A DNA stretch of 64,000 nucleotides, from NCBI GenBank assembly GCA_947164155.1, contig CAMUVS010000003.1:22570-86569 (forward strand), given 5' to 3'. How positions within the stretch are numbered: the first letter of the stretch is position 1; each line of letters begins with the position of its first letter. The stretch comes from an uncultured Bacillales bacterium (GTDB lineage Bacteria > Bacillota_I > Bacilli_A > RFN20 > CAG-826). The notes under the pieces are model-generated. The model made no database searches, was not told the origin of the DNA, and saw only the letters and a program-made list of their open reading frames with translations. A program made the translations under genes and the position numbers. Shown one piece after another: positions 36,880-55,700 of the stretch.

Positions 36880-36886
36880 ATATATA

Positions 36887-38317
36887 CTATTTAAACCATT
36901 TATAATCTGGATATTTAATTCTCTTAGTCCAGTTATGATCTTTAAGTTTCCATTCCCAGTTAGGGGATCCTACTGTTCCTGGATAATTCATTCTCGCTCT
37001 ATTATCTAACTTCAATAAATCTTGAAGTGGGAAAATAGTCATTAAAGATGGAATAGTGAATATATATTTCACTATCTCATCATATAATTTCTTATCATTA
37101 GTGACCCCTAATCTTCTTTTAATAAAGGCCTTTTGGTCTTCATTAAGATTTAAGAACCAACCATATAAAGTTTCATTATCGTGAGTTCCTGGATAGACAA
37201 TTTGTCTATTAGTGCTTTCATTATTTAAATCAAAGATCGTGAATTCACTAATAAACATCCCTGGAAGATTAAATCGATCTCTAAGCTCTAATACTTCAGG
37301 TCTTAAATCACCTAAATCTTCCGCGATTAATTGAGTGTTAGGATATTTCTGATATAAAGCATTAAAAAATTCGTCTTGAGGTCCAATTTTCCATTCACCG
37401 ATTCTTGCATCAGTCGCGTCTCCTGGAATCACATAATATGTATCAAAGGCTCTAAAATGGTCAATTCTAAGTAAGTCACATAAATTCATTAAATAGCCGA
37501 CACGGTCCACTAATAACTTATAGTTATCTTCTTTCATTTTTTCAAAGTTATAAATTGGAGTACCCCAAAGTTGACCAACATCACTAAAAGCGTCAGGGCC
37601 TACTCCACCTACTTCAAATAATTTGTTATCTGGACCAATAGAGAATTGATCTCTATTAAGCCAACATTCAACCCCGTCAAAGCCAACATAGAACGGCATA
37701 TCGCAAATGACCTTAATGCCTTTTCTTTTCGCATAACTTAAAACATGTTTCCACTGCTTTAAAGCCACGTACTGCATAAATATAACAAAATTAATTTCAT
37801 CTAATAATTTTACAGGTGGACAAGTATGAGTGAGATAGTAATCTCTATCTTCTGCTCTCCACTCATTCCACTGCTTATTATCGTTATGCCATTTGAATAC
37901 TTCAAATGTCGCATAAGGCATTACCCATTTATTTCTCACTTTAAATTTATGAAGTGTTTCTGGTTGTTTCTTCATAAATTTCTTATAAGCAAGATATAAA
38001 TATTTCTTCTTATATTCACCAACATTATAGAAATCAACACTACTAGTATGTTCTAAATAAGCAGGCACTCTTTTAATTAAGCCTTGTTTAGTTAAATAAT
38101 CTAAAGAGATATATCTAAACTCTAAAGCATTAGAGCAAGTAGACATATATGGAGAATATCCTGGCCCTAATGGGTTAAGAGGAAGAACTTGCCAATATTG
38201 ATATTTATTCTTATGTAACCAATCGATGAATTTATAACATTCATCACCAAAATCACCAATGCCGTGTCTAGAAGGAAGAGAAGACACCGCAAGTAAAACA
38301 CCTAATTTCTTATTCAT
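36887..38317 (-). CDS. malQ: 4-alpha-glucanotransferase (amylomaltase, GH77)
   Basis: LRIDHFRAF, PGTHDNET and GSPNWEW motifs. 476 aa. Confidence 0.9.
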   Translation of the reverse strand: MNKKLGVLLAVSSLPSRHGIGDFGDECYKFIDWLHKNKYQYWQVLPLNPLGPGYSPYMSTCSNALEFRYISLDYLTKQGLIKRVPAYLEHTSSVDFYNVGEYKKKYLYLAYKKFMKKQPETLHKFKVRNKWVMPYATFEVFKWHNDNKQWNEWRAEDRDYYLTHTCPPVKLLDEINFVIFMQYVALKQWKHVLSYAKRKGIKVICDMPFYVGFDGVECWLNRDQFSIGPDNKLFEVGGVGPDAFSDVGQLWGTPIYNFEKMKEDNYKLLVDRVGYLMNLCDLLRIDHFRAFDTYYVIPGDATDARIGEWKIGPQDEFFNALYQKYPNTQLIAEDLGDLRPEVLELRDRFNLPGMFISEFTIFDLNNESTNRQIVYPGTHDNETLYGWFLNLNEDQKAFIKRRLGVTNDKKLYDEIVKYIFTIPSLMTIFPLQDLLKLDNRARMNYPGTVGSPNWEWKLKDHNWTKRIKYPDYKWFK

Positions 38318-38882: not shown

Positions 38883-40028
38883 TTAGTTTTCTTTCTTTTT
38901 TCTAAAGAGGAAATATCCACCAATAGCTGCTAAAGCAATAGAAGAAATAACAATAATGATAATTGCGGTTCCACCATTTTCACCAATTATGGAACTAAGA
39001 ATTCTGGAATTGGCTGATGCTGAATTAACACTTCTTAACTCATTAATTACTTCCGCAAAAGTAACGGTTGTATCTGCTCCAGAGGAAGATGTGTCCTTAT
39101 ATGTATAAATTGTTGCTGAATCGACATAAGTTTTAGCGGATGCAGTTAATCCATCATATCTATCAACCCATGTCTTAGCATCAAGACCACAAATACTATA
39201 TTGCTTAACACTACCACTTGATGGAACTGCTAATCTTGCAGTATTCAAGTCATATACAAATGCTGCAGCAGCACCATAAGTAGAATCACTTCTCCAAGAG
39301 CTTCCATCATGCCAGTAGTAATTTCCTTCTACATAAGACATATCGCCTGATTGATTAGATCCACCATCATTAAAAATGAAATTAGATTTAGAGGAATTTA
39401 CGTATTCAAATGTCACCTTTTGGAGCATGCCGCCATTAAATTTGAGGTTTGAGTCACTAATAGACACGCTGGTTCCAGGCCAAGAACCATTTAAATATAT
39501 TTCTTTTGAACCAATTTTTTCGAATGTATAAACATTAAGGGCTCCCCAATCAAATGCGTCAACGTAGACTGTAGCAGTTTTTACATCATTATGAGTATAA
39601 GCAACCCATCCAACATCATGAACATACATTTTATGGTTAAAGCTATCAGTTGTTGTCCAAGAACTAAATGGTTGTTGCTGACTAACCCAAGCTGATCCAT
39701 TGTATAGTTGGATTTGCATAGTATCTACACCACCATACTTGACATTATAATCAGCTCTTAAAATATAGTACTCAGTTGAACCTCTTGTGTATGTATATCT
39801 CTCTGGAGTAAACTCATAAGTCCACCAAGTACCATTATCTCCAATATTTAAATTTAACTTGACAGTATAACCTTGAAGGGTAGATGCTTGAACAGCATAA
39901 TATAAATAATAATCACCTTCCGCATTAACAGCCTTAACATCATTGGCATGATTAGCACCAGCAAATGCACCAACGCCTAAAAGCGCAGCAAATGCCGTAG
40001 CAAAAAGCATTTTTCTTTTAGCTCTCAT
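38883..40028 (-). CDS. Membrane-anchored surface protein with CBM25/26-like starch-binding module (paralog family member, 381 aa)
   Basis: Signal peptide. N-terminal beta module shared with the 733-aa protein (YYAV...MQIQLYNGSAWVSQ). A segment NVYTF...GSWPGTSV...FIFNDGGSNQSGDM matches the CBM25/26 pattern. Cys-containing helical module. Anchor IIIIVISSIALAAIGGYFLF-RKKKEN. Confidence 0.65.
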   Translation of the reverse strand: MRAKRKMLFATAFAALLGVGAFAGANHANDVKAVNAEGDYYLYYAVQASTLQGYTVKLNLNIGDNGTWWTYEFTPERYTYTRGSTEYYILRADYNVKYGGVDTMQIQLYNGSAWVSQQQPFSSWTTTDSFNHKMYVHDVGWVAYTHNDVKTATVYVDAFDWGALNVYTFEKIGSKEIYLNGSWPGTSVSISDSNLKFNGGMLQKVTFEYVNSSKSNFIFNDGGSNQSGDMSYVEGNYYWHDGSSWRSDSTYGAAAAFVYDLNTARLAVPSSGSVKQYSICGLDAKTWVDRYDGLTASAKTYVDSATIYTYKDTSSSGADTTVTFAEVINELRSVNSASANSRILSSIIGENGGTAIIIIVISSIALAAIGGYFLFRKKKEN

Positions 40029-40140
40029 AAATAAAACCTCCCGAAAGTTCTATAAATGTAGATTGTTGATAGTTTACCTTAACTTACAATTTATAACAAC
40101 ACTTTTTATAAAATAAAAATAGAATTAGAATCATCAAATT

Positions 40141-40164
40141 AAAAAAGGCGACAAAGTCGCCTTC
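40141..40164 (-). terminator. Terminator after the 382-aa surface protein gene
   Basis: Minus-strand RNA is AAGGCGAC-uuu-GUCGCCUU followed by UUUUAAUUU. Confidence 0.7.
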
Positions 40165-40219
40165 TGTATCAAATTCTATCTAACATTATAACTTTCGGGA
40201 GTCGATAGAAATTGTTACC

Positions 40220-41368
40220 TTAATCGTTTTTCTTCTTCTTAAATAAGAAGTATCCGCCTATAGCAGCGATAGATACTGAGCTAATAACAATGATAGCAAT
40301 CATGCTACTTGAATTTTCTACAGTTTGAGTAATAGGATTAACACTGATAGCAGCGGCTCTAGGAGTAGAACTACTATTCACTATAAATCGCACTAAGCTT
40401 GAATGAGCTGCTACTGCATGATCATATGTTGCAAGTGCTTTGCCTAAATTATCACCATTTGGATCAGCAGTTGCTCCGTAAACGTAATCTTTTGCATCGT
40501 TGGAAAGTTTTCCATATTCTGTCGCACATGACGTCCAACCACTTGGAAGAGTTTTACCGGTAGCATCGCATCCAACATGAGTATTAAAATATGTTGCCCA
40601 TCCATCAGCGTCAACTATATCTTGTCTTGAAATCCATAATCTTTTAGTTTCGGTATCAAAATAGAAATCGTATGTACCAGCAATTTCGCATTTAATATTT
40701 GGATTTTGATCACTTCTTTCGGTTTGACTTCCGCCCGAAATAGCATTTGCTAACGCATCTGGTCTGCCATAATATCCAGACCAAACGCCGTCACCTGCAA
40801 GCATTTTGAATTCTTCATCTTTTTCTAAACTAACAGAACCTGATACTTCTGGATTACCATCACCATTTATACCAATTTTTGATAATGTGGTTTTTGTACC
40901 AAAACTTGAAACTAAACTGCTTCTGACTTGTGCCGAAACTGTCCATTGAGAGGTACTTGGATTATCCCAACCGTTATCGATGTAAGTCGCTTCATTCCAT
41001 CCTAAATCACTAGTTTGATTCCATTTTTGATTCCAATTACCGCTTGTCGCAGCCGGATTCATTCGAACCCAAATTAATTTAGTTGGTGTAAAACTTATAG
41101 AATAATCGAATTTGTATAACAACGTGCTAGTTGATGAGGTTTGTAAAGAAGTCCAATAGTTGTTTGTATCATCAGTGATATAAGCACAAATTTTTGCACC
41201 GCTTTGAAACCAGTTGTGGTTTGAAGCAAATTTAACTATTAAACTCCCAGAAGCCCCAGCAGCTTCAACTTTAGTAGCGTTACCTTTTTGATAAGCAACA
41301 GAAACACCAATACCAGCAGCTAAAACTGTTGATAATAATAATCCACCAATAAGTTTTTTAAGTTTCAT
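40220..41368 (-). CDS. Membrane-anchored surface protein, paralog family member (382 aa), downstream of the G10 promoter
   Basis: Signal peptide. N-terminal module (ICAYITDD..NYWTSL...LIWVRMNP...NQKWNQTSDLGW) related to the C-terminal module of the 1067-aa lipoprotein. A Y-x-G/FK beta module (EEFKMLAGDGVWSGYYG...GTYDFYFDTETKRLWIS). Cys-containing helical module. Anchor IAIIVISSVSIAAIGGYFLF-KKKKND. Confidence 0.6.
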   Translation of the reverse strand: MKLKKLIGGLLLSTVLAAGIGVSVAYQKGNATKVEAAGASGSLIVKFASNHNWFQSGAKICAYITDDTNNYWTSLQTSSTSTLLYKFDYSISFTPTKLIWVRMNPAATSGNWNQKWNQTSDLGWNEATYIDNGWDNPSTSQWTVSAQVRSSLVSSFGTKTTLSKIGINGDGNPEVSGSVSLEKDEEFKMLAGDGVWSGYYGRPDALANAISGGSQTERSDQNPNIKCEIAGTYDFYFDTETKRLWISRQDIVDADGWATYFNTHVGCDATGKTLPSGWTSCATEYGKLSNDAKDYVYGATADPNGDNLGKALATYDHAVAAHSSLVRFIVNSSSTPRAAAISVNPITQTVENSSSMIAIIVISSVSIAAIGGYFLFKKKKND

Positions 41369-41499
41369 AATTTTTCACTTGTCACTAGAGTTTCTAGCGA
41401 CTACTCCTTCCTAGAAGTTAAAACAAGTAAGATATCTCATTGTTTTGAGAACTGTCACTTCAGGAATTTTATTCCTAAAGTATGATGAAAGTTGTAATT

Positions 41500-41528
41500 A
41501 ATATACCCCCCCCCCGTCGCTTTGTCAA
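41500..41528 (-). promoter_or_regulatory. Near-consensus promoter with a G10 tract inside its 17-nt spacer
   Basis: Minus-strand reading is TTGACA (41528-41523) aagcgac GGGGGGGGGG (41515-41506) TATATT (41505-41500). It lies about 130 nt upstream of the ATG at 41368. Confidence 0.6.
41506..41515. repeat. Homopolymeric C10/G10 tract
   Basis: Plus strand reads atata-CCCCCCCCCC-gtcgc. It is the only G/C homopolymer of this length I noticed in the window. Confidence 0.95.
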
Positions 41529-41540
41529 CACATAAATATC

Positions 41541-41557
41541 ATTATGCTAAGCATAAT
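41541..41557. promoter_or_regulatory. Perfect 8-1-8 palindrome just upstream of the -35 box (candidate regulator site)
   Basis: ATTATGCT-A-AGCATAAT at 41541-41557, with a third ATTATG half-site at 41561-41566. Confidence 0.45.
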
Positions 41558-41896
41558 GGTATTATGTTATTTAACCTCAAAATACATTATTTCTTCACGT
41601 TACTCAAAAGGGACAAAATTATATTTCTATTTGTATTTTTAAATGCACCTCATATATAAATGTATTTGCTTATTAATAAAAATAATTAAGCACAATAATT
41701 TTTACTTCTTTCTAAAGATCATTTTGTTTAAATTAATCAAATTTAAGTTATTAAACTCATAATTATTTATCTAATAATTGTTATCTAGATTTAAAGCCTA
41801 TTTAAGACAGGTTAAAGCAAAAAACGTTAATTTATTCAACTTTACTACAAAAGCGTCTTAAATCAGCCTTTATGCGCGATATATACGCACACAAAT

Positions 41897-41922
41897 TAAA
41901 AGCGGACCAAACGGCCCGCTTA
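41897..41922 (-). terminator. Terminator after the 733-aa surface protein gene (AAAAGCG...CCGCTTA family)
   Basis: Minus-strand RNA is AGCGGGCC-guuu-GGUCCGCU followed by UUUUAAUUUG. Confidence 0.7.
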
Positions 41923-41941
41923 GACTAGATTAACTAGTTAA

Positions 41942-44143
41942 TTATTTTTGTTTTCTCTTTTTGAAAACTAATAAGGTTGTAAATGCAAGAGCACTAACAG
42001 CAGCAATAGAGATCACAATAATCATTGTAGAATTATTAACATCACTAGAGGAGAATGTTAAAGAAGATTGTCTAGCTTCGACCTTTTGTCCCCAGATGAA
42101 GTCCTTAAACATTCCTGTGCCATATTTTGTAATAATATAAGCATATCTAGCAACCATTCTTAATTTAGCGTCATCGGATTCTTCATCTCCGCCATTAAAT
42201 CCAACATCTTTAATGTCTTGAATTTCATCTTCTGATAAGCCTTTAAAACCTTCTTCAAATTGTGACCACAATAATTGTAAGGTTTCTAAATCAGTTTGTG
42301 TACCTTGAGCGTGACAAACTGTTCCAGTATGACTTAAGAAATCTTCAATATAAGCATATTCACCACCATTGAACCAAACTTTGTTTTCATCATTAACGTA
42401 GAACGCATATGTTCCAGGAACTGTGAATGCAAAGTTAGTATCTTCATCAATATGGACAAACGCAGGCTCTTCTTTATGACCCATTTCATAAGTAGCAGGA
42501 GCCCAACCAGGTGTTCCTGAACCAGCATCTGCAACAAATTCTAATGGTTTAACAACAAATGGATTATCATCAGTAGTACCTTCTGGAACTTCTACTGCAC
42601 CTGTGCATTTATTACCAGCGGATGTACCTAATTTCATTGAGTTTTCAACTGAGAATGTTTCATCTTCTCCACCAGCTAAGTACCATCCAAGTTGCATAGC
42701 CTTTATATAGAGCGACATATTAGATTCAACAGGGGTAACTCCAGATTCAAATGGAACTGTACAATCAGAGTCGCTATAGACACCTAAAGCAACATATCCT
42801 TCTGGAGTAACATCAGGAACAGTAAATGGTTGTCCTTTAATGACATCAGTATCTTCATATAACGCACTTGTTTCACCTTGACAATAACTACCAGCGTATT
42901 GTTTTGCAAAAACTGTTACTGTTACTCTTTCAGCATGATTAACAACGTCAAATAAGAATTGATTATTAACGTATTTTGCATAAACATCATAAGTTCCATC
43001 AGCGGTGAATTTTAAATTATGACCAACTAATGTGCCAACTTCAGATTCACCATCTTGTAAAGAGGCCCATTGTTCAAATGGAGATCTATCAGTATAGTAA
43101 CTGCAAATTCTAATTTCATCATTTGCTTTTGCTTCAAAACCAATAAATTGAGCCACATCACCTTCATATAAATCTTCAGTGCTCATTTTGTTAGCGGCAA
43201 CATATTTCCATTCGCTAGCAGAGCCTTTAATATAGTAGCCTTCAGAAGCAGGAACTTCTTGAGCAGCATCTGACCATTGAACTTTAAAGCATCCAGATTC
43301 ATCAGTTTCACTCAAAAGTTGTAAATATGCTTTTGCACCTTCTTGGCTAATATCTACGGTTTGTGAAGCAACGCCATCATTAATAATAAAGCTAGCGTCT
43401 ACTGGAACTGTTACAGACTTGCCGTTAACAGCTAATCCTGGCCACTCAGCATTTTTGCCATCTTCATTCCAAGCATAAACATTATATGTATCAAATTTTT
43501 TAGCGTAGCCATCATCAATTGTATATGTAGCTGTTTCTTTATCAACAAATCTACCATAGACGCTACAATCAGAAGTGATTTCGGTTACTTTAGTTTTATA
43601 ATCTGATGCTGTATACCACCCATCAAATGTCTTTCCGTAAGTATTATCCTTTAAAACTGGAGTAGAACCGTCAACAACATCAATAGCAGTTTCTGCAGTT
43701 CCGTCGACTACTGGAGTAACTTTATGAGTTTGACCGTCTGGAGTATAAGTCTTCCATGATCCATCATAAATTTTTCCATTATAGGTAGATACCGCTGTCC
43801 ATGTATCGAATGCCACAACTTGGCTTATCCATGTTCCTCCATCATATTGTTGAAGTTGCATAATGCCAAGACCATCATACTTATCAGTAAAGGAACAAGT
43901 ATAAACAGGAACACCTCCAAAAGTATTATCTGTTTTGGTCATTTCAAAAGTTTCCCAAGGATCTGAATCATAACTACCATAACGAACATTACATTTAACT
44001 GTATATGATGTTGTAACAGCATAATAGATCGTAGTCTTGGTTGCTGCTTTAACTTCAGCAACTTCATTTTGATGTGCACCAACGGCAACACCAACGCCTA
44101 AAGCCATTGCTAAAGTCGTAGCAAAAATTAATCCTTTCTTCAT
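41942..44143 (-). CDS. Membrane-anchored multi-module surface protein with CBM25/26-like module (733 aa, paralog family member)
   Basis: Signal peptide. N-terminal module (TIYYAV...MQLQQYDGGTWISQ). A segment YNVYAWNEDGKNAEWPGLAV...FIINDGVASQTVDI matches the CBM25/26 pattern. At least two Y-x-G/FK beta modules. Cys-containing helical module (FLSHTGTVCHAQG...LSEDEIQDIK...ARYAYIITKYG). Anchor MIIVISIAAVSALAFTTLLVF-KKRKQK. Confidence 0.65.
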   Translation of the reverse strand: MKKGLIFATTLAMALGVGVAVGAHQNEVAEVKAATKTTIYYAVTTSYTVKCNVRYGSYDSDPWETFEMTKTDNTFGGVPVYTCSFTDKYDGLGIMQLQQYDGGTWISQVVAFDTWTAVSTYNGKIYDGSWKTYTPDGQTHKVTPVVDGTAETAIDVVDGSTPVLKDNTYGKTFDGWYTASDYKTKVTEITSDCSVYGRFVDKETATYTIDDGYAKKFDTYNVYAWNEDGKNAEWPGLAVNGKSVTVPVDASFIINDGVASQTVDISQEGAKAYLQLLSETDESGCFKVQWSDAAQEVPASEGYYIKGSASEWKYVAANKMSTEDLYEGDVAQFIGFEAKANDEIRICSYYTDRSPFEQWASLQDGESEVGTLVGHNLKFTADGTYDVYAKYVNNQFLFDVVNHAERVTVTVFAKQYAGSYCQGETSALYEDTDVIKGQPFTVPDVTPEGYVALGVYSDSDCTVPFESGVTPVESNMSLYIKAMQLGWYLAGGEDETFSVENSMKLGTSAGNKCTGAVEVPEGTTDDNPFVVKPLEFVADAGSGTPGWAPATYEMGHKEEPAFVHIDEDTNFAFTVPGTYAFYVNDENKVWFNGGEYAYIEDFLSHTGTVCHAQGTQTDLETLQLLWSQFEEGFKGLSEDEIQDIKDVGFNGGDEESDDAKLRMVARYAYIITKYGTGMFKDFIWGQKVEARQSSLTFSSSDVNNSTMIIVISIAAVSALAFTTLLVFKKRKQK

Positions 44144-44190
44144 TATAAAAATCTCCTTTTGTTTTTTATTAAAAAACGATTAACACTTAT

Positions 44191-44219
44191 ATTTTACTAT
44201 TTTTATTTTATACTGTAAA
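44191..44219 (-). promoter_or_regulatory. Candidate promoter of the 733-aa surface protein gene
   Basis: Minus-strand reading is TTTACA (44219-44214) - 17 nt - TAAAAT (44196-44191). The RBS AAAAGGAGA lies before the ATG. Confidence 0.45.
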
Positions 44220-44340
44220 TTATTTCTATTTATAGAAAAGATATTTAGACAATAAATAATAATGTTTAGTACATTTTCATATGAACGAGTCATACTTTTT
44301 AGAATATACAAAATTTATTTATTAATTAAATAGCCATATT

Positions 44341-44365
44341 AAAAGCGGACCCGGAGGCCCGCTTA
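44341..44365 (-). terminator. Terminator ending the long starch operon (AAAAGCG...CCGCTTA family)
   Basis: Minus-strand RNA is AGCGGGCC-uccg-GGUCCGCU followed by UUUUAAUAUGG. Confidence 0.7.
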
Positions 44366-44384
44366 TGATGATAATTATTTGAAA

Positions 44385-47300
44385 TTATTGAGGGTTATAT
44401 TCTTTCCAAGAGGAACAGCTATAGGAATAAGTTCCGCTAGTACAAGTCATATTTTCAGTTTGATTATAAATTCTACCAGTGACATCTCCTTTAGTGCTCC
44501 AATTTGGAGTAGCTGTACCTTGGATACATCTTACTAATAAGAAGCCTGTTAATTCTTCATCAACTGTAAATGTAGCGGTAGTTCCAGAAATTGTTAATGC
44601 TTTCCAAGAACCAGTATCGTTAGCTGACCATACCCAAGCAAAGATTACACAACCATCATTTTGAATCCAAGTTGGTAAAGAGGTCACAGTATAAGTAATA
44701 TCATCTTCAATTGGAGTATCTCCTCCACCATCAGCATAATAGAGTTTAATGTGGTTACCTTCTCCATGTTCAACATATAAGTCGACATAATAATTGCCAG
44801 TCACTAAGACTTTTAAATTGCCTTCGCTTGTTGTGGTCCAGTGAGTTGCATCTTCTGTATATCCTTCATTAGATCCAATAAATGCTTCATCAGCTACAGA
44901 ATAGACTTTTAATTCAGTATTAGCGCTTAATTCAATAGGTCCAAGACTATAATGGTTGTCATCAAGAGAATCTTGATTCATCGCATATTGCTCATCAATT
45001 TCCCAGGCACCGTTAATACCTTCAACATAATATAAGGCTTCTGGGGATGGAGATGGAGATGAGTTAGCCTCAACATAAACTGACCAACCTCTATTTTGAT
45101 CTAAGCATTTAACATAAATCTTATAAGTACCTTCAGTATTAACAACAACATTATCTGGATGACTCATTTGACCTTTAGCAAATGCACCAACAGTGTCTTC
45201 ATAAGCGACTTCCCAATATAATGTTTCTCCACCAATGACAACTTTAAATTGATTATCTTTAACAAATGTAACTGTTGCTTCATATTGAACAATAACATCA
45301 TCACTCTTAGGAGCGGTAGATACTTCAAACTTCATTGCTTTAGAAGCATCGCTTCCCCAATAATCAGCTGTACCAGTAGCTGTACCAGTATGATAATCAG
45401 CATTACCAACAAGATAAGGAATACCATCTTCGAATGTTTTTGGAAGTGGGGCGTCAGTAGAGATAGTAACTATTACTTCTACACTCTTCCAGCTATCAGT
45501 AAAGACAATCTTAGCAGTACCAGCGTTTTCTCCTGCGGTAACAGTGAATTTATAATTTTCACTACCTGTTCCACGAACAACACTAATTAAGGAACTACCT
45601 TCAGTTATTTCATAAGATAGGTCTCCTTGCCAATCGTGTGCTTCTAAAACAGTGGATTCATTAATTTGAATTTGTGGTGTGGTATCAGATAAGTTCAATT
45701 CATGACGTCCAACATAAATGCTATACCATCCTTCAGGATGTTCGTTAGTATATTGCGCGTGATAGATTGCATAATATCCAGTACGGTTAACTAAGATATT
45801 ATTATCAGCAGTCACTGACATATCTGGAGAAGTACCAACGAAGGCCCCTTCATTTACTTTATATTCACCAATACGATATGTACCAGTTGTGTAACCATCA
45901 ATTTCTAAATATGCTGAGGCATTACGTAACTTCCAAAGATCGCCTTGGTTAAATTTCACAATCGCTCTTCTTTCATATAATAAGGTATCATGAGGTGTTT
46001 GAACGACTTCATTAACGGCCTTAGCTTGATTGGCTCTATCCCAGCTACCAGTTGAGGAAGCTTTAGAAACACCACTAGAATAATCAGCACTACCAACGAT
46101 ATAAGTCATATCGCTACTAAATGGAATTTCTGGAACACTAACAGTAATTTCTTTAGCGGCACTGACACCTAAAACAGTAGCAGTAATAGTAACTACGCCA
46201 TCACTAACTCCACTAACAGAGCCAGATTCATTAACGGTAGCAATATCAGTGTTACTACTACTATAAGTGACATATTCACTTGGAACGCCGCTAGGATCAG
46301 TAGAAACACTTAATTGAATGCTGCTACCAACATTAACTTCATTAGCCCCAGAAATAGAAACAGTATCAACTTCATAACCAACTGATAAATTCACAGTCTT
46401 ACTAACTCCGCTTCGAGTTTCGGAAACTGTTAAGGTGGTTGAACCTATTGCACTAACAGCAAATAATTTGCCAGCTTCATTAACTCGAGCAACAGTTTCA
46501 TCTGCTACTTGGAAAGTGAAGTTAGGAATAGAAGCAACAGGATATCCAGCTTTATCGGTTGTATATTCAAATGGAATAGTTATATTACTTCTTCCATTTC
46601 TATTAGTTAAACTAATATCATCAAGAAGAATATTTTGAACTTTGACTTCAAAGACATTAACAGTCATTTTTTCACTAGTAATAGTTCCTTCTTTGCCTTT
46701 GGCGGTCGCATAGATCTTTGCGCTACCAGTAGCTAAAGCGTGGACAATACCAGTATCTTCTTCAACAGATAATATAGATGGATTATCAGAATAATATTTA
46801 ACTTCTGGATGAGTCACTTCAACATCTAGTTCATTAGCTCTAATAGCCTCAGCCTTCATAGTAAAGTTATGACCAATTTCGACTTCAGATTCAAATTCAG
46901 TAATACGAACTGTATCTGGATAAATTGTGCGGTCAGCGACTTCCACAGTTAATTCAATAGCTTTATTAATATAAGCACTACTAGCGGTAATGATAACGTT
47001 ACCACTAACATCTTTAGTGGTTAAAACACCATCATCGTTAATAGTTGCGATATCTTCGTTAGATGAATGCCAAGATAATTCTGTTTCGGTAGTGTCACTT
47101 GGAGAGTATCTCACTAAGTTTTCTAATTGATATTGATGATTAAAATCAGCAGGTAAATTATCTTGAACGAAATAAATATCAGTTACAGGAACATAGACTT
47201 CAACAGTTAAATTAATTGGTTCAAATGAAGCTTCTTTATTAGAACATGTAATTGTGGTTTTACCAGCTTCTAAAGCAGTAACTACACCTTTAGAAACAGT

Positions 47301-47588
47301 AGCAACACTTTCATTACTACTAGCCCAACTTAATGCTCCTTTAACTGCTTTAGCAGGTTCAATAGAGTATTGATATGCATGAGTTTCTCCGTGAGGAATA
47401 TAAATGGATTCTTCCCCACTTTCAAAACTAACTTTGGTAATAGGGACACTATAATCAACCCATTCAGTATCAATATCTAAATCAGAATCATCATAATTAA
47501 GTCCAATTGAGCCATTACCTCCACAAGAAGTAAGAGTTAATCCGGCAAAAGCTAAAGCAAATAAGTAGTATCTTTTCTTCATATTCAC
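44385..47588 (-). CDS. Large surface lipoprotein: five Big_2 Ig-like domains, three Y-x-G/FK beta modules and a C-terminal CBM-like module (1067 aa)
   Basis: Lipobox LTLTSCGG. Repeated Big_2 pattern (e.g. LSWASSNESVATVSKGVVTALEAGKTTITC; VTYSSSNTDIATVNESGSVSGVSDGVVTITA). Modules starting YIVGSADY, YLVGNADY and YYVEGINGAW. C-terminus VIFAWVWSANDTGSWKAL...FLLVRC...YNQTENM. Confidence 0.7.
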   Translation of the reverse strand: MNMKKRYYLFALAFAGLTLTSCGGNGSIGLNYDDSDLDIDTEWVDYSVPITKVSFESGEESIYIPHGETHAYQYSIEPAKAVKGALSWASSNESVATVSKGVVTALEAGKTTITCSNKEASFEPINLTVEVYVPVTDIYFVQDNLPADFNHQYQLENLVRYSPSDTTETELSWHSSNEDIATINDDGVLTTKDVSGNVIITASSAYINKAIELTVEVADRTIYPDTVRITEFESEVEIGHNFTMKAEAIRANELDVEVTHPEVKYYSDNPSILSVEEDTGIVHALATGSAKIYATAKGKEGTITSEKMTVNVFEVKVQNILLDDISLTNRNGRSNITIPFEYTTDKAGYPVASIPNFTFQVADETVARVNEAGKLFAVSAIGSTTLTVSETRSGVSKTVNLSVGYEVDTVSISGANEVNVGSSIQLSVSTDPSGVPSEYVTYSSSNTDIATVNESGSVSGVSDGVVTITATVLGVSAAKEITVSVPEIPFSSDMTYIVGSADYSSGVSKASSTGSWDRANQAKAVNEVVQTPHDTLLYERRAIVKFNQGDLWKLRNASAYLEIDGYTTGTYRIGEYKVNEGAFVGTSPDMSVTADNNILVNRTGYYAIYHAQYTNEHPEGWYSIYVGRHELNLSDTTPQIQINESTVLEAHDWQGDLSYEITEGSSLISVVRGTGSENYKFTVTAGENAGTAKIVFTDSWKSVEVIVTISTDAPLPKTFEDGIPYLVGNADYHTGTATGTADYWGSDASKAMKFEVSTAPKSDDVIVQYEATVTFVKDNQFKVVIGGETLYWEVAYEDTVGAFAKGQMSHPDNVVVNTEGTYKIYVKCLDQNRGWSVYVEANSSPSPSPEALYYVEGINGAWEIDEQYAMNQDSLDDNHYSLGPIELSANTELKVYSVADEAFIGSNEGYTEDATHWTTTSEGNLKVLVTGNYYVDLYVEHGEGNHIKLYYADGGGDTPIEDDITYTVTSLPTWIQNDGCVIFAWVWSANDTGSWKALTISGTTATFTVDEELTGFLLVRCIQGTATPNWSTKGDVTGRIYNQTENMTCTSGTYSYSCSSWKEYNPQ

Positions 47589-47594
47589 TGCCTC

Positions 47595-48602
47595 CTATGC
47601 TGGTAAAACAGGGACATCAAACCATTGTCCGTACAAAGTAACGGTATAAGACATCATTGGTAAATCTGCAATGACGTCTTTATTCATATCCCATAAATTA
47701 TCTTTTGTATCGATGATTGGATGAGTAGACCAACCGATGAAATATGGGAAGGCAGGATCCATTGCTTGAGAATTATTCACAGTTGGAATTAAGGAATTGC
47801 CTTCAGCATCTTTTGCTTCGATTAATGGTCGATCATAATACCAATCAAATTTTGCTAATAATTTAGTTTTAGTAGTATCTTTTGGATCAGCGTTATTGTA
47901 ATCGATATAGAAATAGACTGTATATTCTTTATCGATTGGTTTTTCTTCCTCTATAACAACTATGTGACATTTAGCAGAACCATCTCCAGCAGTAACTAAA
48001 ACATCAGCTTTACCTTTGGCTTTTGCTTTAACTACACAAGCGGAAGTGGTAGATTGTGTAATTTCAATAACAGTAGTATTACCAGCATCAAAAGTTGCAT
48101 CTGCTAAAGGAGAAACAGTAGCGGTTAAGTTAAATTCTTCACCAACTGATAAAGTTCTACTAGAGGAAGATAAAGTAATTTTGGTTGTACCTGGCTCAGG
48201 AGTTGGTCCTGGACCTGGATCAGGAGTAACACTAGGAACATAAATTTCACAAGTTGCTAATTGATATCCTGCAATAAAAGAGATTTGTGTAGTGCCACTA
48301 CCAACAACTTCAACAAAGCAGTTATCAGTTTCATAATCTGGAGATATACGAGCAACACTAGTCTTGCTAGATGCCCATCGTTTTGAAACTTCAACTTCTT
48401 TATCGTCTCTAAATTTAATTTCACCAAATAAAACGAAGGAATCACCAATAGAGGCTGTCAAGTATTCTTCAGAAATAGAAACTGATTCCACCATCTTATT
48501 ATTATTAGATGTACTGCTTGAACCACCAGTTTCACCACAAGATGCTAATCCAAAGGTTAATAATGCCAGGGAAGATAATGCTAATTTAAAAATGTTTTTC
48601 AT
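47595..48602 (-). CDS. Surface lipoprotein with two Big_2 domains, PG-rich linker and a C-terminal beta domain (335 aa)
   Basis: Lipobox GLASCGE. Big_2-like segments (RWASSKTSVARISPD...GSGTTQISF; LTATVSPLADATF...AKGKADVLVTA). Linker PDPGPGPTPEPG. Confidence 0.65.
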   Translation of the reverse strand: MKNIFKLALSSLALLTFGLASCGETGGSSSTSNNNKMVESVSISEEYLTASIGDSFVLFGEIKFRDDKEVEVSKRWASSKTSVARISPDYETDNCFVEVVGSGTTQISFIAGYQLATCEIYVPSVTPDPGPGPTPEPGTTKITLSSSSRTLSVGEEFNLTATVSPLADATFDAGNTTVIEITQSTTSACVVKAKAKGKADVLVTAGDGSAKCHIVVIEEEKPIDKEYTVYFYIDYNNADPKDTTKTKLLAKFDWYYDRPLIEAKDAEGNSLIPTVNNSQAMDPAFPYFIGWSTHPIIDTKDNLWDMNKDVIADLPMMSYTVTLYGQWFDVPVLPA

Positions 48603-48620
48603 TGTTCTATCCTCCTAAAA

Positions 48621-51600
48621 TTAACCATTTAACTTATAGCAAATAAATCCATATTTTGGCATTGCTATATTATCTCCAGAACGAGAGATATTCATGTTAG
48701 AGAATACGATGTCTGCAACATTAATATTGCCCCAGGTAAAGGTTCCACCGCTTCTGCCAGCAAATAAGAAACCATATCCTTGGGTTGATGAGATTCTACA
48801 CCATCCAGCAACTACGCTAGATCCATCTCCATCGCCCCAGGCATTATAAATAGAATCATCATGTAATTCCCACATAGTGTGATAATCGACTCTAGTCATT
48901 GCGTCTCTGGCTTTAATCATATCTGACCAAGTCTTGTTATAACTTGATACATCTACGCCGTTAACTTCAATCTTACGGTCCCACTTAAAGGAATTCACGT
49001 AATCAGGAGCTTTATAAGAGTTATGAGAAATAATATCTCCATACATATCAACATCTTGAGTAGCAATTACCACGTTAGGATCTGAATCATAATGCTTATA
49101 TTGTGGATATGGTCTAACTGTCGCAGGAGATCCGTCCGCTTTTGGAGCACTTTGAACATTTTTATAATCATCTAAATCATAAGAATATGTTTTAGTTCTA
49201 TATAATTCTTCGCCTCCTTGCATAAAGGCCACACCATTAGACATCATCACCGCTCCGTGACATGCTAAAGTTGCTTCGATAGTTTCTTTAATAGTTGGAG
49301 CAACAGTTGCAGAGTGAGATGGGAGATTATGACCACTACCAAGGGTGTATCTTAATTGATCCCATAAAGTATAGTTATCATGACAACTCATGTAATTAAT
49401 AGTTTGTTCTGGGTTTGCTCCTGGGGCTCTATTATTTGCGCCTTTAAGCATGGAAACAACTGTTGAAGATTTGTTGCCAACATATTCAGAACCCATAGAA
49501 ATATAACCAAATTGAGGATATGGATTATTGTTATATCCATCATCATTTCTTCCTTTGGTCTCATCTCTACCATCATCATTAAAGCCGCCGACTTGTCCAT
49601 GAGAAGTATCAGAGGCATATAAATTAGCGTAAGCTTGTTGGCTAGATGCACCACCTTTAATTAAATCAAAGAAGCGAGTGTCACTGAAATATGGATAAAT
49701 ATCTTTTCCATCATCTGGAGAATATTTTGGATATGTACTTTGTCCGCCATAATCAAGAACTTCAAATTCAACACCAGAATCTTTATCTCTTAACAAAGCA
49801 CGACCGTGATATCCACCACTAGTCCAGCCTTCTCCATAAAGGACAATGTCTTTATCAACATTGTTATATAAATCTTGCTTGGCATCATCTAAGGTCCAAC
49901 AATCAATTAATCCCATTAAATCAAAACGGAATCCTTTGATCTTGTATTCTTCTGCCCACCAATGTAAGGAATCAACAACAAATTTAGAACCCATTTTGGC
50001 GTCAGTTTTAAATTCATTATTACATCCAGAACCATCGTAATATTCCCAGTTAGGTGTATAACGGAAATAATATTTAGGCATCATTTTGTTAAATGAGGAT
50101 TGAGAGGCACTACTAACGTGATTATAAACAACGTCCATAATGACTCTAGTGTGATTATCGTTATTAGCGAAAGCCATAACTAAATTTTTAAAATCTCTAA
50201 TTCTTTCTAAAGGATCGTAATCAACCCATTTACCATTATTATCATAGATAAATGATTCAGGAGAATATCCACCTTCAACACAGTTATAGTTAAGAGGATT
50301 ATAACCCCAGTTAAATTTCATCTTTTCTGGTCTTTCTTCATTATCTTGGTCAAAAACAGGTAAAATTTGTACAGCTTTAACACCTAATTCGTTAATGTGA
50401 TCAAAACCAGTAGTTACAGTTTTATTATTTTTGGTATAGGTTGTACCTTTTTCCACGAAGGCTTTATAAGAACCTCTAGTGTTATTTGCGTTACTAACCC
50501 AAGTTTCATCCATAGTTAAATCACGAATATGAATTTCATAAATTGATAAATCTTGCGGGGTTTCGATATCATATCCAGCCACTCCATCCCATACTGCAGG
50601 AACATTATTCCAGCCATCAGGATTAGCATCTACTCCATTTTTATCATAGACATAACCTCTAATGCCGTTAACCCCACAAGCTTTGACATATGGATCAACT
50701 GTTTCAATAGTGCCAGCACTATGAGTTAAAGTAAAGGTATAGTAGCTACCAGCCATATCACCTTCGATTGTGGTTTCCCAAATACCTCCAGATTGATAAG
50801 ACATCTTATAAATATCTTTATCATCGTTACCACCTAAAGATTTAGGAGTACCGGTATCATAAATATTAAGTAAGACATTAGCGCTAATTGGAGACCAAAT
50901 TCTAAATGTTGTTTTACTTGGAGTATAAATCATTCCAAGTTCCCCATTATATGTATAGAATTGATTAAATCTTTCTTGAGAATATAAATTTTCTGCACCA
51001 ACAATGCATTTTTGCCATCGATCAAATCCAGGGAATTTAGTTTCTACAACATATTGAATATTGATTTTAGCAGTAGCGTTAAAGACGATATCAAATTCAT
51101 TACCAGTAGGAACACCAGATTTGATTTGATAATAATCTTTATTTGATGCTTGTGCTGCTTCTGACATATTTAAATAATTCTTGTCATAAGCAAATAAACG
51201 ATATTCAGTTGGTACCCACTTTTTACCTTCAGCGTCAATTGTAGAAGTACAGTGAATAGTTTTAAAATCAGTGAATTTTGCTGATTTGACTTTTGGAAGT
51301 TCACTTTCAGCTTTAGTTTTATAAATTTCAACAGAGGTTCCTTCTCCAGGAATGGTCCATAATTCGAGAGTGCCGTTATTCTCGATAATTAAATCTTGAT
51401 ATAAAGCATAATCAATAATGGTATCTTCGGATTGTCCAGCCCAAGTACCAGCAACTTTAATAATGAAATATAACGCAGAAGTGTCTGCGTATTCAGGGAT
51501 AACAGAGAAATCTAACGTAATCTCCATATCCACAGCAGTCCATTCTCCGTTAGGTTTTCTTTCAGTACCATCAACTCCGGTAACCCAAGTGTAGAATCTA

Positions 51601-51866
51601 CGAGTATTACAAGCGTTATCATCATTATGGTAATGAAGAATAACTTTATTTGGTAACACTAATTCATCATCACCTTCCGCTGCTCTAACAGAACGGAATG
51701 GTTTGCCTTTGATATTAGTTAAATCATCGTCATCAGTTTTTTCTACTGGTGGATCATAATTTACGACTTCCTCATCTTTAGGAACATCGAAAGCACTACA
51801 GGCTGGTAAGACTAACGCTCCACCAGCAAGTAATACAGTAAATATTGATAATGCTTTATTTTTCAT
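48621..51866 (-). CDS. pulA: Type I pullulanase lipoprotein (GH13 with CBM48 and N-terminal pullulanase-associated domain)
   Basis: Lipobox LVLPACS. YNWGYNP, VIMDVVYNH, GFRFDLMG, YGEGW and YMSCHDN motifs. Confidence 0.88.
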   Translation of the reverse strand: MKNKALSIFTVLLAGGALVLPACSAFDVPKDEEVVNYDPPVEKTDDDDLTNIKGKPFRSVRAAEGDDELVLPNKVILHYHNDDNACNTRRFYTWVTGVDGTERKPNGEWTAVDMEITLDFSVIPEYADTSALYFIIKVAGTWAGQSEDTIIDYALYQDLIIENNGTLELWTIPGEGTSVEIYKTKAESELPKVKSAKFTDFKTIHCTSTIDAEGKKWVPTEYRLFAYDKNYLNMSEAAQASNKDYYQIKSGVPTGNEFDIVFNATAKINIQYVVETKFPGFDRWQKCIVGAENLYSQERFNQFYTYNGELGMIYTPSKTTFRIWSPISANVLLNIYDTGTPKSLGGNDDKDIYKMSYQSGGIWETTIEGDMAGSYYTFTLTHSAGTIETVDPYVKACGVNGIRGYVYDKNGVDANPDGWNNVPAVWDGVAGYDIETPQDLSIYEIHIRDLTMDETWVSNANNTRGSYKAFVEKGTTYTKNNKTVTTGFDHINELGVKAVQILPVFDQDNEERPEKMKFNWGYNPLNYNCVEGGYSPESFIYDNNGKWVDYDPLERIRDFKNLVMAFANNDNHTRVIMDVVYNHVSSASQSSFNKMMPKYYFRYTPNWEYYDGSGCNNEFKTDAKMGSKFVVDSLHWWAEEYKIKGFRFDLMGLIDCWTLDDAKQDLYNNVDKDIVLYGEGWTSGGYHGRALLRDKDSGVEFEVLDYGGQSTYPKYSPDDGKDIYPYFSDTRFFDLIKGGASSQQAYANLYASDTSHGQVGGFNDDGRDETKGRNDDGYNNNPYPQFGYISMGSEYVGNKSSTVVSMLKGANNRAPGANPEQTINYMSCHDNYTLWDQLRYTLGSGHNLPSHSATVAPTIKETIEATLACHGAVMMSNGVAFMQGGEELYRTKTYSYDLDDYKNVQSAPKADGSPATVRPYPQYKHYDSDPNVVIATQDVDMYGDIISHNSYKAPDYVNSFKWDRKIEVNGVDVSSYNKTWSDMIKARDAMTRVDYHTMWELHDDSIYNAWGDGDGSSVVAGWCRISSTQGYGFLFAGRSGGTFTWGNINVADIVFSNMNISRSGDNIAMPKYGFICYKLNG

Positions 51867-51896
51867 TGGACGACCTCCAAAAAATTAATTTGTTAA

Positions 51897-52736
51897 TTAG
51901 GCAAGTTGAATATAGAGCCTATCTTGTTGATACATGATTTGAATATAGAAATCACCTGTAAATGTTTGTTTAACAGTGTATTCTTTAGTGCCAATAGTGA
52001 GATACTCATCAACTTTTGGATTTTCTTCAGTGCCACCAAAGGAATAAGGATTAATATTAACAACCCATTTACCTAAAGTTGAAGGATCATAAAGTGAGAA
52101 TGTATCTCCAGTATTAAGAGTAACTCCTTGAACTAAATATTCATCATATCCTTCAAAGTTTTTACCCTTTGATTCTCCGATATAAGCGGTTCCATCTCCA
52201 GTAATAATACCGAATCCAGTTTGTACAGTTCCTCCACCAGATCCGCCTCCGGAACCTCCTCCAGAGCCTCCGCCACCAGTATTTCCACCGGCGTCAGTGC
52301 CATCAAAAATGGCTTTTAAGGCAACTCCAGCTTTAGCAGGAACTGTTGTGTAATAATCTGGCCAAACATGGTCATTATCTTCGTCATAATATGCCCAGCC
52401 TCTAAATGTCGAACCACTAACAGTAGTTTTTACAATAGTTGCATCTGGTAAGGCAGTGCCGCTATCACCTTTCCAAGTAATGGTGTTTTCGTAGAATAAT
52501 TCATCAACTGTACCTTTAACAGGTGCCCCATCGATTGATAAATAGCCAAATGGTCCAATCATTAAATAGGTAATGAAATCGGAGCTATTATCTCTAAAGC
52601 CAATAGCTGGTCTACCATTTAATTCTCCACGTTCGAAATGAGGTTCAGATGGCGCTAATTCTTGTCCGCCACTAGAACAACTTGCTAGAGCAATAAGAGG
52701 AAGTAAAGTAAATAAATATTTTGCTTTCATTTTCAT
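51897..52736 (-). CDS. Surface lipoprotein with (GGGS)n linker and a C-terminal Y-x-G/FK-type beta module (279 aa)
   Basis: The start was set to MKMKAKYLFTLLPLIALASCSSGG after AATAAGGAGGAT. The track's 52 extra residues overlap the amylase gene. Linker GGNTGGGGSGGGSGGGSGGG. C-terminal module ends ...GDTFSLYD...FTGDFYIQIMYQQDRLYIQL. Confidence 0.65.
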   Translation of the reverse strand: MKMKAKYLFTLLPLIALASCSSGGQELAPSEPHFERGELNGRPAIGFRDNSSDFITYLMIGPFGYLSIDGAPVKGTVDELFYENTITWKGDSGTALPDATIVKTTVSGSTFRGWAYYDEDNDHVWPDYYTTVPAKAGVALKAIFDGTDAGGNTGGGGSGGGSGGGSGGGTVQTGFGIITGDGTAYIGESKGKNFEGYDEYLVQGVTLNTGDTFSLYDPSTLGKWVVNINPYSFGGTEENPKVDEYLTIGTKEYTVKQTFTGDFYIQIMYQQDRLYIQLA

Positions 52737-52743: not shown

Positions 52744-55700
52744 TTATTTTTGAACCACAACAAATCCATAAGCTGGAACTGTTGTATCAGTGCTACCATA
52801 AGAACCACCAATTTTTGGTCCTTGGTTATGAGCTTCAATTTCTTTGGACGTTGAGCTAGCGTTAATAAAGACGATAACACTTCTAGAGCCATCAGAAATC
52901 TTCATAGAAATAGTATTGGTGTCTCCACCCATTGTTCCAGTCCACTCTAAACTACCATAAGTTGGGAATCTAGAATCACCTTTAGCGTGACAGACTGCTT
53001 TAAAGAAGTTATACATTGAGTTAGGGTCTTGTTGTTGAGCGCTAACAATTGGAGTTTGTGAAGAAATAGAATCCCATAAGACATCAAGTCCGCCGAATCC
53101 ATATTCAACGACTCCGTCTTTGCCGTATTCAGTACCCCATCTCATTGGTTGACGATACCATCTATCAATATTGTTGCCGTGGTCATCAACATCTTGGATC
53201 TTATCGCTTAAGTTACCACATAAGCCAATTTCATCGCCGTAATAGATCCAGCTTAATCCTGGACTTAATAAGGTGACTGCCGCAAACCATTTAGCACGGT
53301 TTTTAGCAGCTTCCCAGTTAGAAGAATTAACTTCAGCGTGATGTACTGAAACATTAGTGGTTGCAGCGTGATTGAGTAATCTAGCAACGTCATGGTTAGA
53401 AGTAAAGGCACCGTTAATGGCCTTAGAACGATATTGAGCGTTATAGCCTAAAGTAGCGGTAATATCTCCACCCATTGCAGTAATTCCACCACCACTAATT
53501 GTGGATTCATGTAAATGATAATAAGTTGAGAAGTCAAATTGAGAATCAATCGCTTCATAGAATGGAGCAATACGAGCGTTCCATCCATCAAAGTTTTCAC
53601 CAACTAAGAAGCAATTTGGATAAGCCGCTTTAATAGTGCCGGCAAATTGTTTCCAGAACATGACGTTAAGGTCACGGTCATAAGTGTAATCGTTCATGAC
53701 TTTGATTTCTCTTCCTAGTTCTGGGTTATAGTAGGTACGATAACCAACGTCATAAGTGACATAATCACCAGAGTAGTTATAAGTTGGATCTAATTCAGAT
53801 AATAAGTAAATATGTTTAATCGCGTCTAATCTAAAGCCGTCTAGACCAAAGCTTAACCAATATTTACACATATCGGTCATGTAGTCTCTTGTAGCTTGGC
53901 AAGAATAATTGAGTTCGGCCATACCACTACCGAATTTGCCGTAATAGTAGTAATTAGAAGTTCCATCTCTATACCAGTCAGAAGAATCTTCAACATTCTT
54001 AGTGACAAATGTAGCAGGATTATCAGGACCATATGGTTTCTTTGGATCAGCTGCTTCCACTCCGTTCCATTCTAAAATCTTGTCACCTTTATATTTCCAG
54101 ACATACATATCACGGTAATTAATAGTCTTGCCGTTAATGATTTCGGTTTCTGCTCTTTGAGATTTCTTATATAAGACGTTACTCTTAGAGGTATGGTTAA
54201 TAACCATATCCATTAAGACTTTCATGCCCTTCGCGTGGGCTTTATATAATAATTCTTGGTAATCTTTTAAAGTTCCAAATCTTTGGTCAATCTTATAATA
54301 GTCAGTAACATCATATCCATGATAAGAATTACTTTCTTGAATTGGTGTTAACCATAAAACATCGATTCCAAGATCTTCTAAGTAATCTAATTTTGAGGTG
54401 ATACCTTTAATATCTCCATAACCATCGCCATTGCTATCGCAGAATGATGGAACAAAAATTTGATATCCAGTACCTGGACGATCATTTAAGAAGGAGGTTG
54501 AAGTACTTACTCCTGCTTTAAAGGCATCATATTTTAAGTTGGTAATATCATTTTTAGAACGATATTGTCCGGTTGTATCAGTAGCGGTTGGGTTAACAAT
54601 TGTTTGAGTTCCACTTGTAGTTTTAAAATCGCTTACAGCGCCTTCAACAGCATAGACATGTAAATATCCATCTTTACCAGAAGGCATAATTCTACCAATA
54701 CGTTTAATATAGCTTTCCGCACCACCATCAGATGTCCACATATCGCTACCATCCATTTTAGTTTGGTCAACGACTAAGAAGCCAATTGCTGCGGATAAAA
54801 ATAAGTCATGATATTCTTCAGTCCAAAGATAATCGCCAATTAATGGTGCAGGCTTACCGGTTCTACCACCGACAACTCCGCCAGGAATTAAAGATTGATC
54901 TAAGACTAAGTCCATAACTTGTCCAAATTGATCTGAATATGGTTCAGTACCTTCTCCACCACAATCAGCATTGGTCATCCAACCCCATGTTTGTGGAGTA
55001 ATACCTTTTTGGTCGTAATTATGGCTTGCACCCCATAAACTACCTTCGCCATCATCTGGATAGTTTGGCCAAGCCCAAATGGCCCATTTATCATAATCCG
55101 AATCTGTTTTTCTTAAATAATGGAAATATAAATGTCCTGGTTTACTCCAAGCGGCGATTTGTGCATCATAATCACTTTCTCCGCCACTAGCAGTAACGGT
55201 GACGTGACAAGTAACAGTACGAGTATCATCTTCACTAGTAACAGTTGCGGAAATATCAGCAGAACCAGCTTTAATGGCTTTAATTGTGCCGTTAGTAACT
55301 TCAACAACGCTTGGATTACTAGATCCCCAAGTAACTGTCGCACCAGCTGGACGATATGTCGCGGTTAATTTATCGCTAGTACCTTCGGTCAAAGTTAAAT
55401 TTTGTTTATCTAAGGAGATATAAATATCGCTAGCAGGATCAATTACTGTTACTGCACAAGAAGCAGTTTTAGTACCAACTTTTGCAATAATTGTCGCTAA
55501 TCCTTCAGAAATTGCTTTAACTTTTGCGCTTGTATTGTCTTTTGGTTCAACTGTAGCGACTAATTCATCTGAAGTAGTAAAACTAACAGGATTATTCGTT
55601 CCACTAACAGAGGCTGTAAGAATAAATTCTTCATTAATTGATAATTGTTTAGAAGTTGGAGAAAGAGCAAGAGTAATAGTTGGTTCTACATTACCTCCAC

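Follow-up and report, generated by a model that had tools for sequence, protein, structure and literature searches.

Non-catalytic starch-adherence proteins have been described in Firmicutes, namely Ruminococcus bromii Sas20 and Sca5, which contain X25 modules, and Sas6, which combines CBM26 with another carbohydrate-binding module (CBM) (PMC9112005). The domains of SusE and SusF are also X25 modules. A Bacillus pullulanase and, besides Sas20 and Sca5, the R. bromii protein Sca3 contain this module type as well, and a platform of two aromatic residues has been described for it (PMC9112005). Here, we analyzed a 64,000-nucleotide (nt) stretch of contig CAMUVS010000003.1, referred to as the window, from an uncultured rumen "Bacilli bacterium". 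Six open reading frames (ORFs) in the window, designated by the number of amino acids (aa) they encode (p381, p382, p733, p1067, p335, and p279), had been proposed from the letters alone to form a family of modular, membrane-tethered, putative alpha-glucan-binding proteins. This proposal, referred to as the sequence-only reading, agrees with our comparisons, in which the recognizable modules were predicted to be of the CBM26 and X25 types. We consider it likely that the region constitutes the surface-capture part of a starch/alpha-glucan utilization locus.

The six ORFs had exactly the ends and lengths that had been claimed. They lie on the minus strand, as do all genes of the region, and the GC content was ~34%. 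No catalytic Pfam domain was detected in any of the six proteins, consistent with their description as non-catalytic. A complete alpha-glucan locus surrounds their genes. Along the direction of transcription, the order was a solute-binding protein (SBP), two permeases, a MalK-like ATPase, two small proteins of 270 and 231 aa (p270 and p231), the amylase, p279, the pullulanase, p335, and p1067, continuing downstream of p1067 with p733, p382, p381, MalQ (GH77), GlgB, and GlgP. The block from the amylase through p279, the pullulanase, and p335 to p1067 was tightly packed. The clustering with amylase and pullulanase genes was thus confirmed, and the locus found is a conserved starch/maltodextrin locus: the same gene order was observed in four rumen/reticulum metagenome-assembled genomes (MAGs), labeled Bacilli bacterium, Bacillales bacterium UBA2753, or Erysipelotrichaceae bacterium, and on further metagenome contigs. 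When RpoB was compared, all matches at 81% identity or more were MAGs, none labeled more closely than "Bacilli bacterium".

Three of the proteins carry an N-terminal signal peptide and a C-terminal transmembrane (TM) helix, and three are lipoproteins. Protein p381 (38883..40028) consists of the signal peptide, a module designated M1, a CBM26 module, a diverged pre-anchor region, and the TM helix with an RKKKEN tail. In p382 (40220..41368), the signal peptide is followed by a module designated M3, an X25 module, a four-helix module designated Ct, and the TM helix with a KKKKND tail. The arrangement in p733 (41942..44143) is signal peptide, M1, Flg_new, CBM26, X25, Flg_new, X25, Ct, and TM helix with a KKRKQK tail; the two Flg_new repeats (nt 43538-43732 and 42692-42856) had been overlooked in the sequence-only reading. 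The lipoprotein p1067 (44385..47588) contains five Big_2 domains (aa 69-486, nt 46131-47384), X25 copies, and M3; a segment of ~95 aa (aa 630-722) appeared Big_2-like by eye only. Translation of p1067 probably starts two codons downstream, giving 1065 aa. The lipoprotein p335 (47595..48602) comprises two Big_2 domains and a conserved C-terminal domain of ~115 aa (nt 47598-47939), so that the Big_2 Ig-like spacers that had been noted were recovered in both p1067 and p335. The lipoprotein p279 (51897..52736) has an N-terminal domain (nt 52287-52655), a Gly/Ser linker, and a C-terminal module of ~110 aa (nt 51900-52229). A motif seen by eye (F-x-G-W ... Y-A/G-x-W/F) made the C-domain of p335 and the N-domain of p279 candidates for Flg_new repeats; the hhalign comparison was not significant, and the assignment was rejected.

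A link to known starch-binding proteins came from the ~100-aa repeat. Copies were tested with a profile built from homologues only (Z=2000) and 800 shuffled controls, the best of which reached 11.9 bits. Five window copies were significant (23-76 bits): two in p733 (aa 296-405, nt 42929-43258, and aa 486-593, nt 42365-42688), one in p382 (tested as aa 165-247; module at aa 165-249, nt 40622-40876), and two in p1067 (aa 739-842, nt 45063-45374, and aa 850-942, nt 44763-45041). A borderline copy in p1067 (aa 496-626, nt 45702-46103) scored 11.4 bits, just below the best shuffle, and 22 bits with an iterated profile, and no copies were found in p335 or p381 by profile search. The repeat had been claimed to occur at least seven times in five proteins; it proved real, but with six or seven copies, spread over three or four proteins. 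When a profile of 30 repeat copies was searched against the PDB, SusF (4fe9, 5e-14) and SusE (4fch, 6e-5; 4fem, 7.6e-4) were matched, and Sca5 was not; searching the PDB directly with the p733 and p1067 sequences returned solely Big_2-type or chance matches. The Pfam family SusF_SusE (PF16411) was above threshold in the family members P0059 (2.3e-11) and P0087 (1.1e-7), and many relatives carry the precomputed family PF26120, CBM_1st_SusF. Judged by these profile comparisons, the repeat and the starch-binding (X25) domains of SusF and SusE are homologous. With two conserved aromatic residues ~40-46 apart taken as the criterion for the X25 platform, two alignment positions were found that are occupied by W, F, or Y in every window copy and that, by sequence alignment only, align with W residues of SusF.

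The C-module of p279 was examined as a further X25 candidate. In a jackhmmer search, 59 of its 73 matches overlapped X25 matches, with weak first-round links. The segment at aa 195-266 was not significant with the homologue-only profile (8.4 bits), hhalign gave 15%, and the PDB search returned nothing; owing to these negative tests, the module was downgraded and is termed tentatively X25-like.

A second type of module had been noted to fit the CBM25/26 pattern, and both the Pfam score and the profile comparison identified it as CBM26. The copy in p381 (aa 160-231, nt 39336-39551) matched Pfam CBM26 with 28.7 bits against a cut-off of 28.1. A profile including this copy and that of p733 (aa 205-285, nt 43289-43531) matched R. 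bromii Amy16 (1.3e-13), Amy4 (1.8e-12), and also Amy10, as well as Eubacterium rectale Amy13K (9e-5) and Sas6. Module M3, which had been recognized as common to the N-terminus of p382 (aa 37-140, nt 40949-41260) and the C-terminus of p1067 (aa 967-1063, nt 44400-44690), was indeed shared, the two copies being linked at 3e-13. In the p733 family, M3 (63 proteins) was found at the N-terminus more often than any other module. Inside the M3 modules of P0016 and P0012, relatives that retain the WPG motif, Pfam CBM26 was above its cut-off, and M3 is probably related to CBM26. The comparison of M3 with X25 by hhalign gave a probability of 2%.

Module M1 was likewise confirmed as common to p381 (aa 36-150, nt 39579-39923) and p733 (aa 34-135, nt 43739-44044), with 39% identity over 144 aa (E=1.5e-19). 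It is rare: ~15 proteins of the homologue set contain it, and a hidden Markov model search of a set of 5.8 billion proteins added merely six fragments. The AlphaFold model was a confident all-beta sandwich (predicted local distance difference test score (pLDDT) 84, predicted TM-score (pTM) 0.80). Weak Foldseek echoes (TM ~0.4) involved CBM21 of PTG/GM, the N-domain of TVAI, and CGTase; these model-based similarities to starch- and glycogen-binding modules are a hint, not an assignment. Profile comparisons of M1 with X25, CBM26, and M3 revealed no link.

The Ct module, which had also escaped the sequence-only reading, occupies ~90-100 aa just before the anchor and is common to the three TM-anchored proteins. 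It is located at aa 601-705 (nt 42029-42343) in p733 and aa 263-343 (nt 40340-40582) in p382; the corresponding region of p381 (aa ~245-340) has diverged (Ct profile, E=1.5). Ct was present in 89 of the 94 p733 homologues; a Trp and a Tyr in it are invariant and a Cys is nearly so, and the structure model of Ct consisted of four helices (pLDDT 85.5). A search of 1.84 billion representative proteins with the Ct profile yielded 1,268 matches at E<=1e-3, 206 of them at E<=1e-10. Among the matches listed, nearly all ended 30-45 residues before the C-terminus, and 94 of the 120 new top representatives contained X25, M3, CBM26, or M1. Ct followed by a TM anchor was also found on P0206, P0238, P0258, P0266, P0268, and P0276, which carry Big_3, Beta_helix_3, or Flg_new and no starch module. 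Ct is thus not restricted to starch proteins, and its distribution suggests that Ct plus TM anchor constitutes a general anchoring cassette in this lineage.

Both routes of membrane attachment proposed earlier, lipobox and C-terminal helix, were found. Lipobox signal peptides (L-x-x-C) were present in p1067 (LTSC), p335 and p279 (both LASC), the amylase (LTAC), the pullulanase (LPAC), p231 (LSSC), and p270 (LTSC). The C-terminal TM helix with its Lys/Arg tail maps to nt 41957-42028 in p733, nt 40238-40315 in p382, and aa 350-376 (nt 38901-38981) in p381. The term "tail-anchored" did not hold for these three proteins, since each begins with a hydrophobic signal peptide; they are predicted type I membrane proteins rather than strict tail-anchored ones. 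The statement that LPXTG, cohesin, dockerin, and SLH elements are absent agreed with our scans, in which none were found: no cohesin or dockerin match was obtained at E<=0.1 in nine scanned proteins, and the LPXTG motif was absent from the sequences, the sub-threshold TIGR01167 matches spanning the TM helix and tail and not the motif. The signal peptide of the p733 homologues, MKKGLIFATTLAMALGVGVAVGAHQ, was nearly invariant in the set collected by a word-based search (P0001-P0094). Proteins found through Ct alone had related but variable signal peptides, which indicates that the invariance of MKKGLIFATTLAMALGVGVAVGAHQ is largely an ascertainment effect of the word-based search; its interpretation as true conservation was set aside.

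Comparison with related loci revealed rapid change in the binding proteins. Between locus L009 and the window, the enzymes were 90-95% identical, whereas p335, p279, and the Big_2 half of p1067 were 70-77% identical, and the p733-like genes and the half of p1067 that carries the CBMs were reshuffled (L009, 9300-14000), with 30-54% identity per module. In the p279 orthologue of L007 (1014-1841), M3 replaces the C-module seen in the window. Within the p733 family, M1, M3, or X25 alternate in the first N-terminal slot of otherwise identical architectures. The replacement in L007 and the common N-terminal slot suggest that the modules are functionally interchangeable, and we infer modular exchange among functionally equivalent binding units. 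In L011, from another strain, the p381 homologue and malQ are separated by an insertion (14513-17926) comprising a DUF6088/AbiEii toxin-antitoxin pair and an AAA_14/DUF4143 gene.

The neighboring genes supply the remaining parts of the locus. The GH13 alpha-amylase (52744..56025) is a lipoprotein with N-terminal Big_2 spacers, and the pullulanase-type GH13 enzyme (48621..51866) carries CBM48 and a lipoprotein-like signal; both are regarded as catalytic partners of the six proteins. The ABC importer genes (57533..64000) encode the SBP, two permeases, and an 852-aa MalK-like ATPase, and the cytoplasmic alpha-glucan enzymes MalQ, GlgB, and GlgP are encoded at 32310..38317. The small lipoproteins p231 and p270 (56051..57533), between malK and the amylase gene, had no match in Pfam or NCBIfam and may be additional components of the system. 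The SBP ORF (62517-64000, minus strand) has no upstream stop and extends past the window end; in its visible N-terminal part, a Big_2-like Ig segment precedes the SBP_bac_8 domain, so the binding protein of the transporter also appears to be stalked. The MalK-like ATPase (57533-60091, minus strand) has an extension of ~480 aa after its ABC and OB domains, without a Pfam match and including a long Lys/Glu-rich stretch with a coiled-coil look; a typical MalK has ~370 aa.

Each of the genes for p733 and p382 has a terminator-like hairpin downstream and a strong promoter-like site upstream, which suggests that each is transcribed on its own, in contrast to the packed genes from the amylase to p1067. 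The spacer between p733 and p382 (41369-41941; 573 nt) is AT-rich and without ORFs and contains the terminator-like hairpin of p733 (41921-41900), a promoter-like site with 11 of 12 matching positions (41528-41500), and a 13-bp palindrome (41535-41563). No regulatory RNA was found by Rfam scan in the binding-protein region, including this spacer. The genes for p335 and p1067 are only 6 nt apart (47588-47595), and P0130 (1407 aa), from another sample, has the length of a p335-p1067 fusion, judged by length alone. Between p381 and malQ lies a 74-aa ORF (38450-38674, minus strand) with a terminator-like hairpin behind it (38423-38403). At this position, L001-L006 and L011 have a called gene of equal length, a correspondence of position and length and not of compared sequences; these genes have no Pfam entry in the precomputed annotation. 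Elsewhere in the window, a HipA-like kinase gene (23777-24979) lies amid housekeeping genes, and an Rfam L10 leader (20154-20245) lies upstream of the rplJ region; both are unrelated to the starch locus.

The analysis shows the gene content, the homologies of the modules, the anchor signals, and the conservation of gene order; from these, we infer that the proteins bind glucan, are exposed on the surface, and cooperate with the enzymes. The three lipoproteins and three type I membrane proteins, the latter with cleavable signal peptides and basic tails in the cytoplasm, would display arrays of CBM26, M3, and X25 modules, held off the membrane at graded distances by non-binding spacers: Big_2 beside the lipid anchor, Flg_new between modules, and, near the TM helix, the four-helix Ct and an Asn/Ser-rich linker. 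Acting jointly, many weak sites would retain soluble glucan or granules of starch on the surface of the cell. The amylase and pullulanase, as lipoproteins on Ig-like stalks, would cleave the glucan there; the stalked SBP would catch the resulting maltooligosaccharides, the ABC transporter would import them, and MalQ and GlgP would process them intracellularly.

Several results weigh against this reading of the region. The window proteins by themselves gave no Pfam SusF_SusE match at E<=0.1, so the X25 assignment rests on the family profile. The repeat profile also matched an X25-type domain in BT3088, a dextran-binding surface glycan-binding protein (SGBP; E=0.0036), and ligand specificity is accordingly read from context only. 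M3 had no sequence match in the PDB, and its hhalign comparison with CBM26 gave a probability of 9%, though the conserved motifs were in register; as only relatives reach the CBM26 threshold, M3 was graded as CBM26-like, probable. M1 had no PDB sequence match and nothing below E=0.1 in Foldseek, and Ct had neither a PDB sequence match nor a fold match (best E=2.4). No CBM or other binding module was detected in p335, and neither its C-domain nor the p279 N-domain had a PDB match.

In a different reading, the proteins are general adhesins or bind other glycans (dextran, host or microbial glycans, or plant-wall material) and the neighborhood of starch genes is incidental. The X25-like domain of the dextran-binding SGBP would suit such a role, no function has been assigned to M1, Ct, the C-domain of p335, or the N-domain of p279, and the Ct anchor cassette also serves proteins without starch modules. 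CBM26, however, is starch-specific and its matches here were starch-active proteins, the order with amylase, pullulanase, MalQ, GlgB, and GlgP is kept across diverged MAGs, and p279, p335, and p1067 are packed tightly between or after the enzyme genes; we regard this explanation as very improbable. In a further alternative, the proteins would not bind independently but form a defined complex at the membrane, with Ct and/or the TM helices joining the binders, the lipoprotein enzymes, and the ABC transporter, and Ct taking the assembly role that cohesin-dockerin pairs have in the amylosome. It would account for Ct being the most constant part of the family (89/94 homologues, ~1,270 representative proteins), always directly before the anchor, with its invariant Trp and Tyr, near-invariant Cys, and a confident four-helix model lacking a PDB fold match. 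A generic stalk or anchor would fit equally, given that Ct is also found on Big_3 and Beta_helix_3 passengers, and the lipoproteins of the locus have no Ct and that of p381 has diverged (E=1.5), which makes assembly through Ct quite unlikely in our estimation. The broader combination, that M1 is a rare new family of alpha-glucan-binding modules and that Ct plus TM helix is a lineage-wide anchoring/assembly cassette, is also unlikely when taken jointly. In that case, the cassette would organize binders, enzymes, and transporter into a cohesin-free, amylosome-like complex in a large, uncultured rumen Bacilli clade that is maybe wall-less. The M1 part is conceivable because M1 occupies the same slot as X25 and M3, is modeled as a confident beta-sandwich, and has weak CBM21, CBM34, and CGTase echoes.

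The cell envelope offers another way to explain the spacers: in a walled Gram-positive host without sortase substrates, Big_2, Flg_new, and Ct would carry the binding modules across the peptidoglycan. The sequence-only reading had presumed a cell bounded by a single membrane; the window contains no informative envelope genes. All the proteins have their spacers proximal to the anchor and their binding modules distal, one related MAG is labeled Erysipelotrichaceae (the remainder only Bacilli or Bacillales), and the TM helix with its basic tail resembles an LPXTG sorting signal minus the motif, as reflected in the sub-threshold TIGR01167 matches. The GC content and the lipoprotein-rich design would, on the other hand, also suit wall-less cells of the Acholeplasma/Anaeroplasma type. 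We regard the walled host as a real but not favored possibility. Surface capture of starch or alpha-glucan stays the preferred reading of the region.

The locus widens the known range of the SusE/SusF-type X25 and CBM26 toolkit to proteins predicted to be anchored directly in the membrane, outside Bacteroidota and Clostridia. The reshuffling of binding proteins among close strains, whose enzymes are 90-95% identical, points to fast turnover of the capture apparatus, and M1 and Ct are concrete targets for biochemistry. Rumen starch breakdown influences feed efficiency and acidosis. The lineage, an abundant group of uncultured Bacilli, is not known to have cultured relatives, and to our knowledge none of its proteins has been studied; literature searches revealed no description of the system.

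The sequence-only reading had likened the proteins to the Bacteroides Sus complex and the Ruminococcus amylosome in function, with an unrelated architecture. At the level of anchoring and assembly, this holds; at the level of modules, it fails, since the repeat is homologous to SusF/SusE domains, X25 occurs in Sas20 and Sca5, and CBM26 occurs in amylosome enzymes and Sas6. Like SusE and SusF of Bacteroides thetaiotaomicron (4fem/4fch and 4fe9), the window proteins are non-catalytic, putatively surface-located proteins, in part lipid-anchored, encoded next to an amylase gene and built with tandem X25 modules of ~100 aa that are detectably homologous. In contrast to SusE and SusF, half of them are anchored by a C-terminal TM helix and not by lipid, their X25 modules are mixed with CBM26, M3, M1, Big_2, Flg_new, and Ct, and the N-terminal domain of SusE is absent. 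The host presumably has no outer membrane, and the locus also differs in lacking SusC/SusD and in relying on an ABC importer for uptake; neither SusC (a TonB-dependent transporter) nor SusD was encoded among the flanking genes, which makes the locus Sus-like in its predicted function, not a polysaccharide utilization locus. With R. bromii Sas20, Sca5, and Sas6, the window proteins share their non-catalytic nature and X25 or CBM26 modules, and the window CBM26 profile matched Sas6. They differ from amylosome proteins in having no cohesin, dockerin, or sortase signal and in their predicted direct attachment to the membrane; without cohesins and dockerins, the system is not an amylosome. As with E. 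rectale Amy13K and Gram-positive multi-CBM amylases, surface capture would proceed through CBM26, in combination with an ABC maltooligosaccharide importer. In Amy13K, however, the CBMs are fused to a wall-anchored enzyme, whereas in the window they reside mostly on separate non-catalytic proteins that are predicted to be anchored through a lipobox or a TM helix. On these comparisons, the locus is a known starch-capture strategy in altered form and not a new kind of system.

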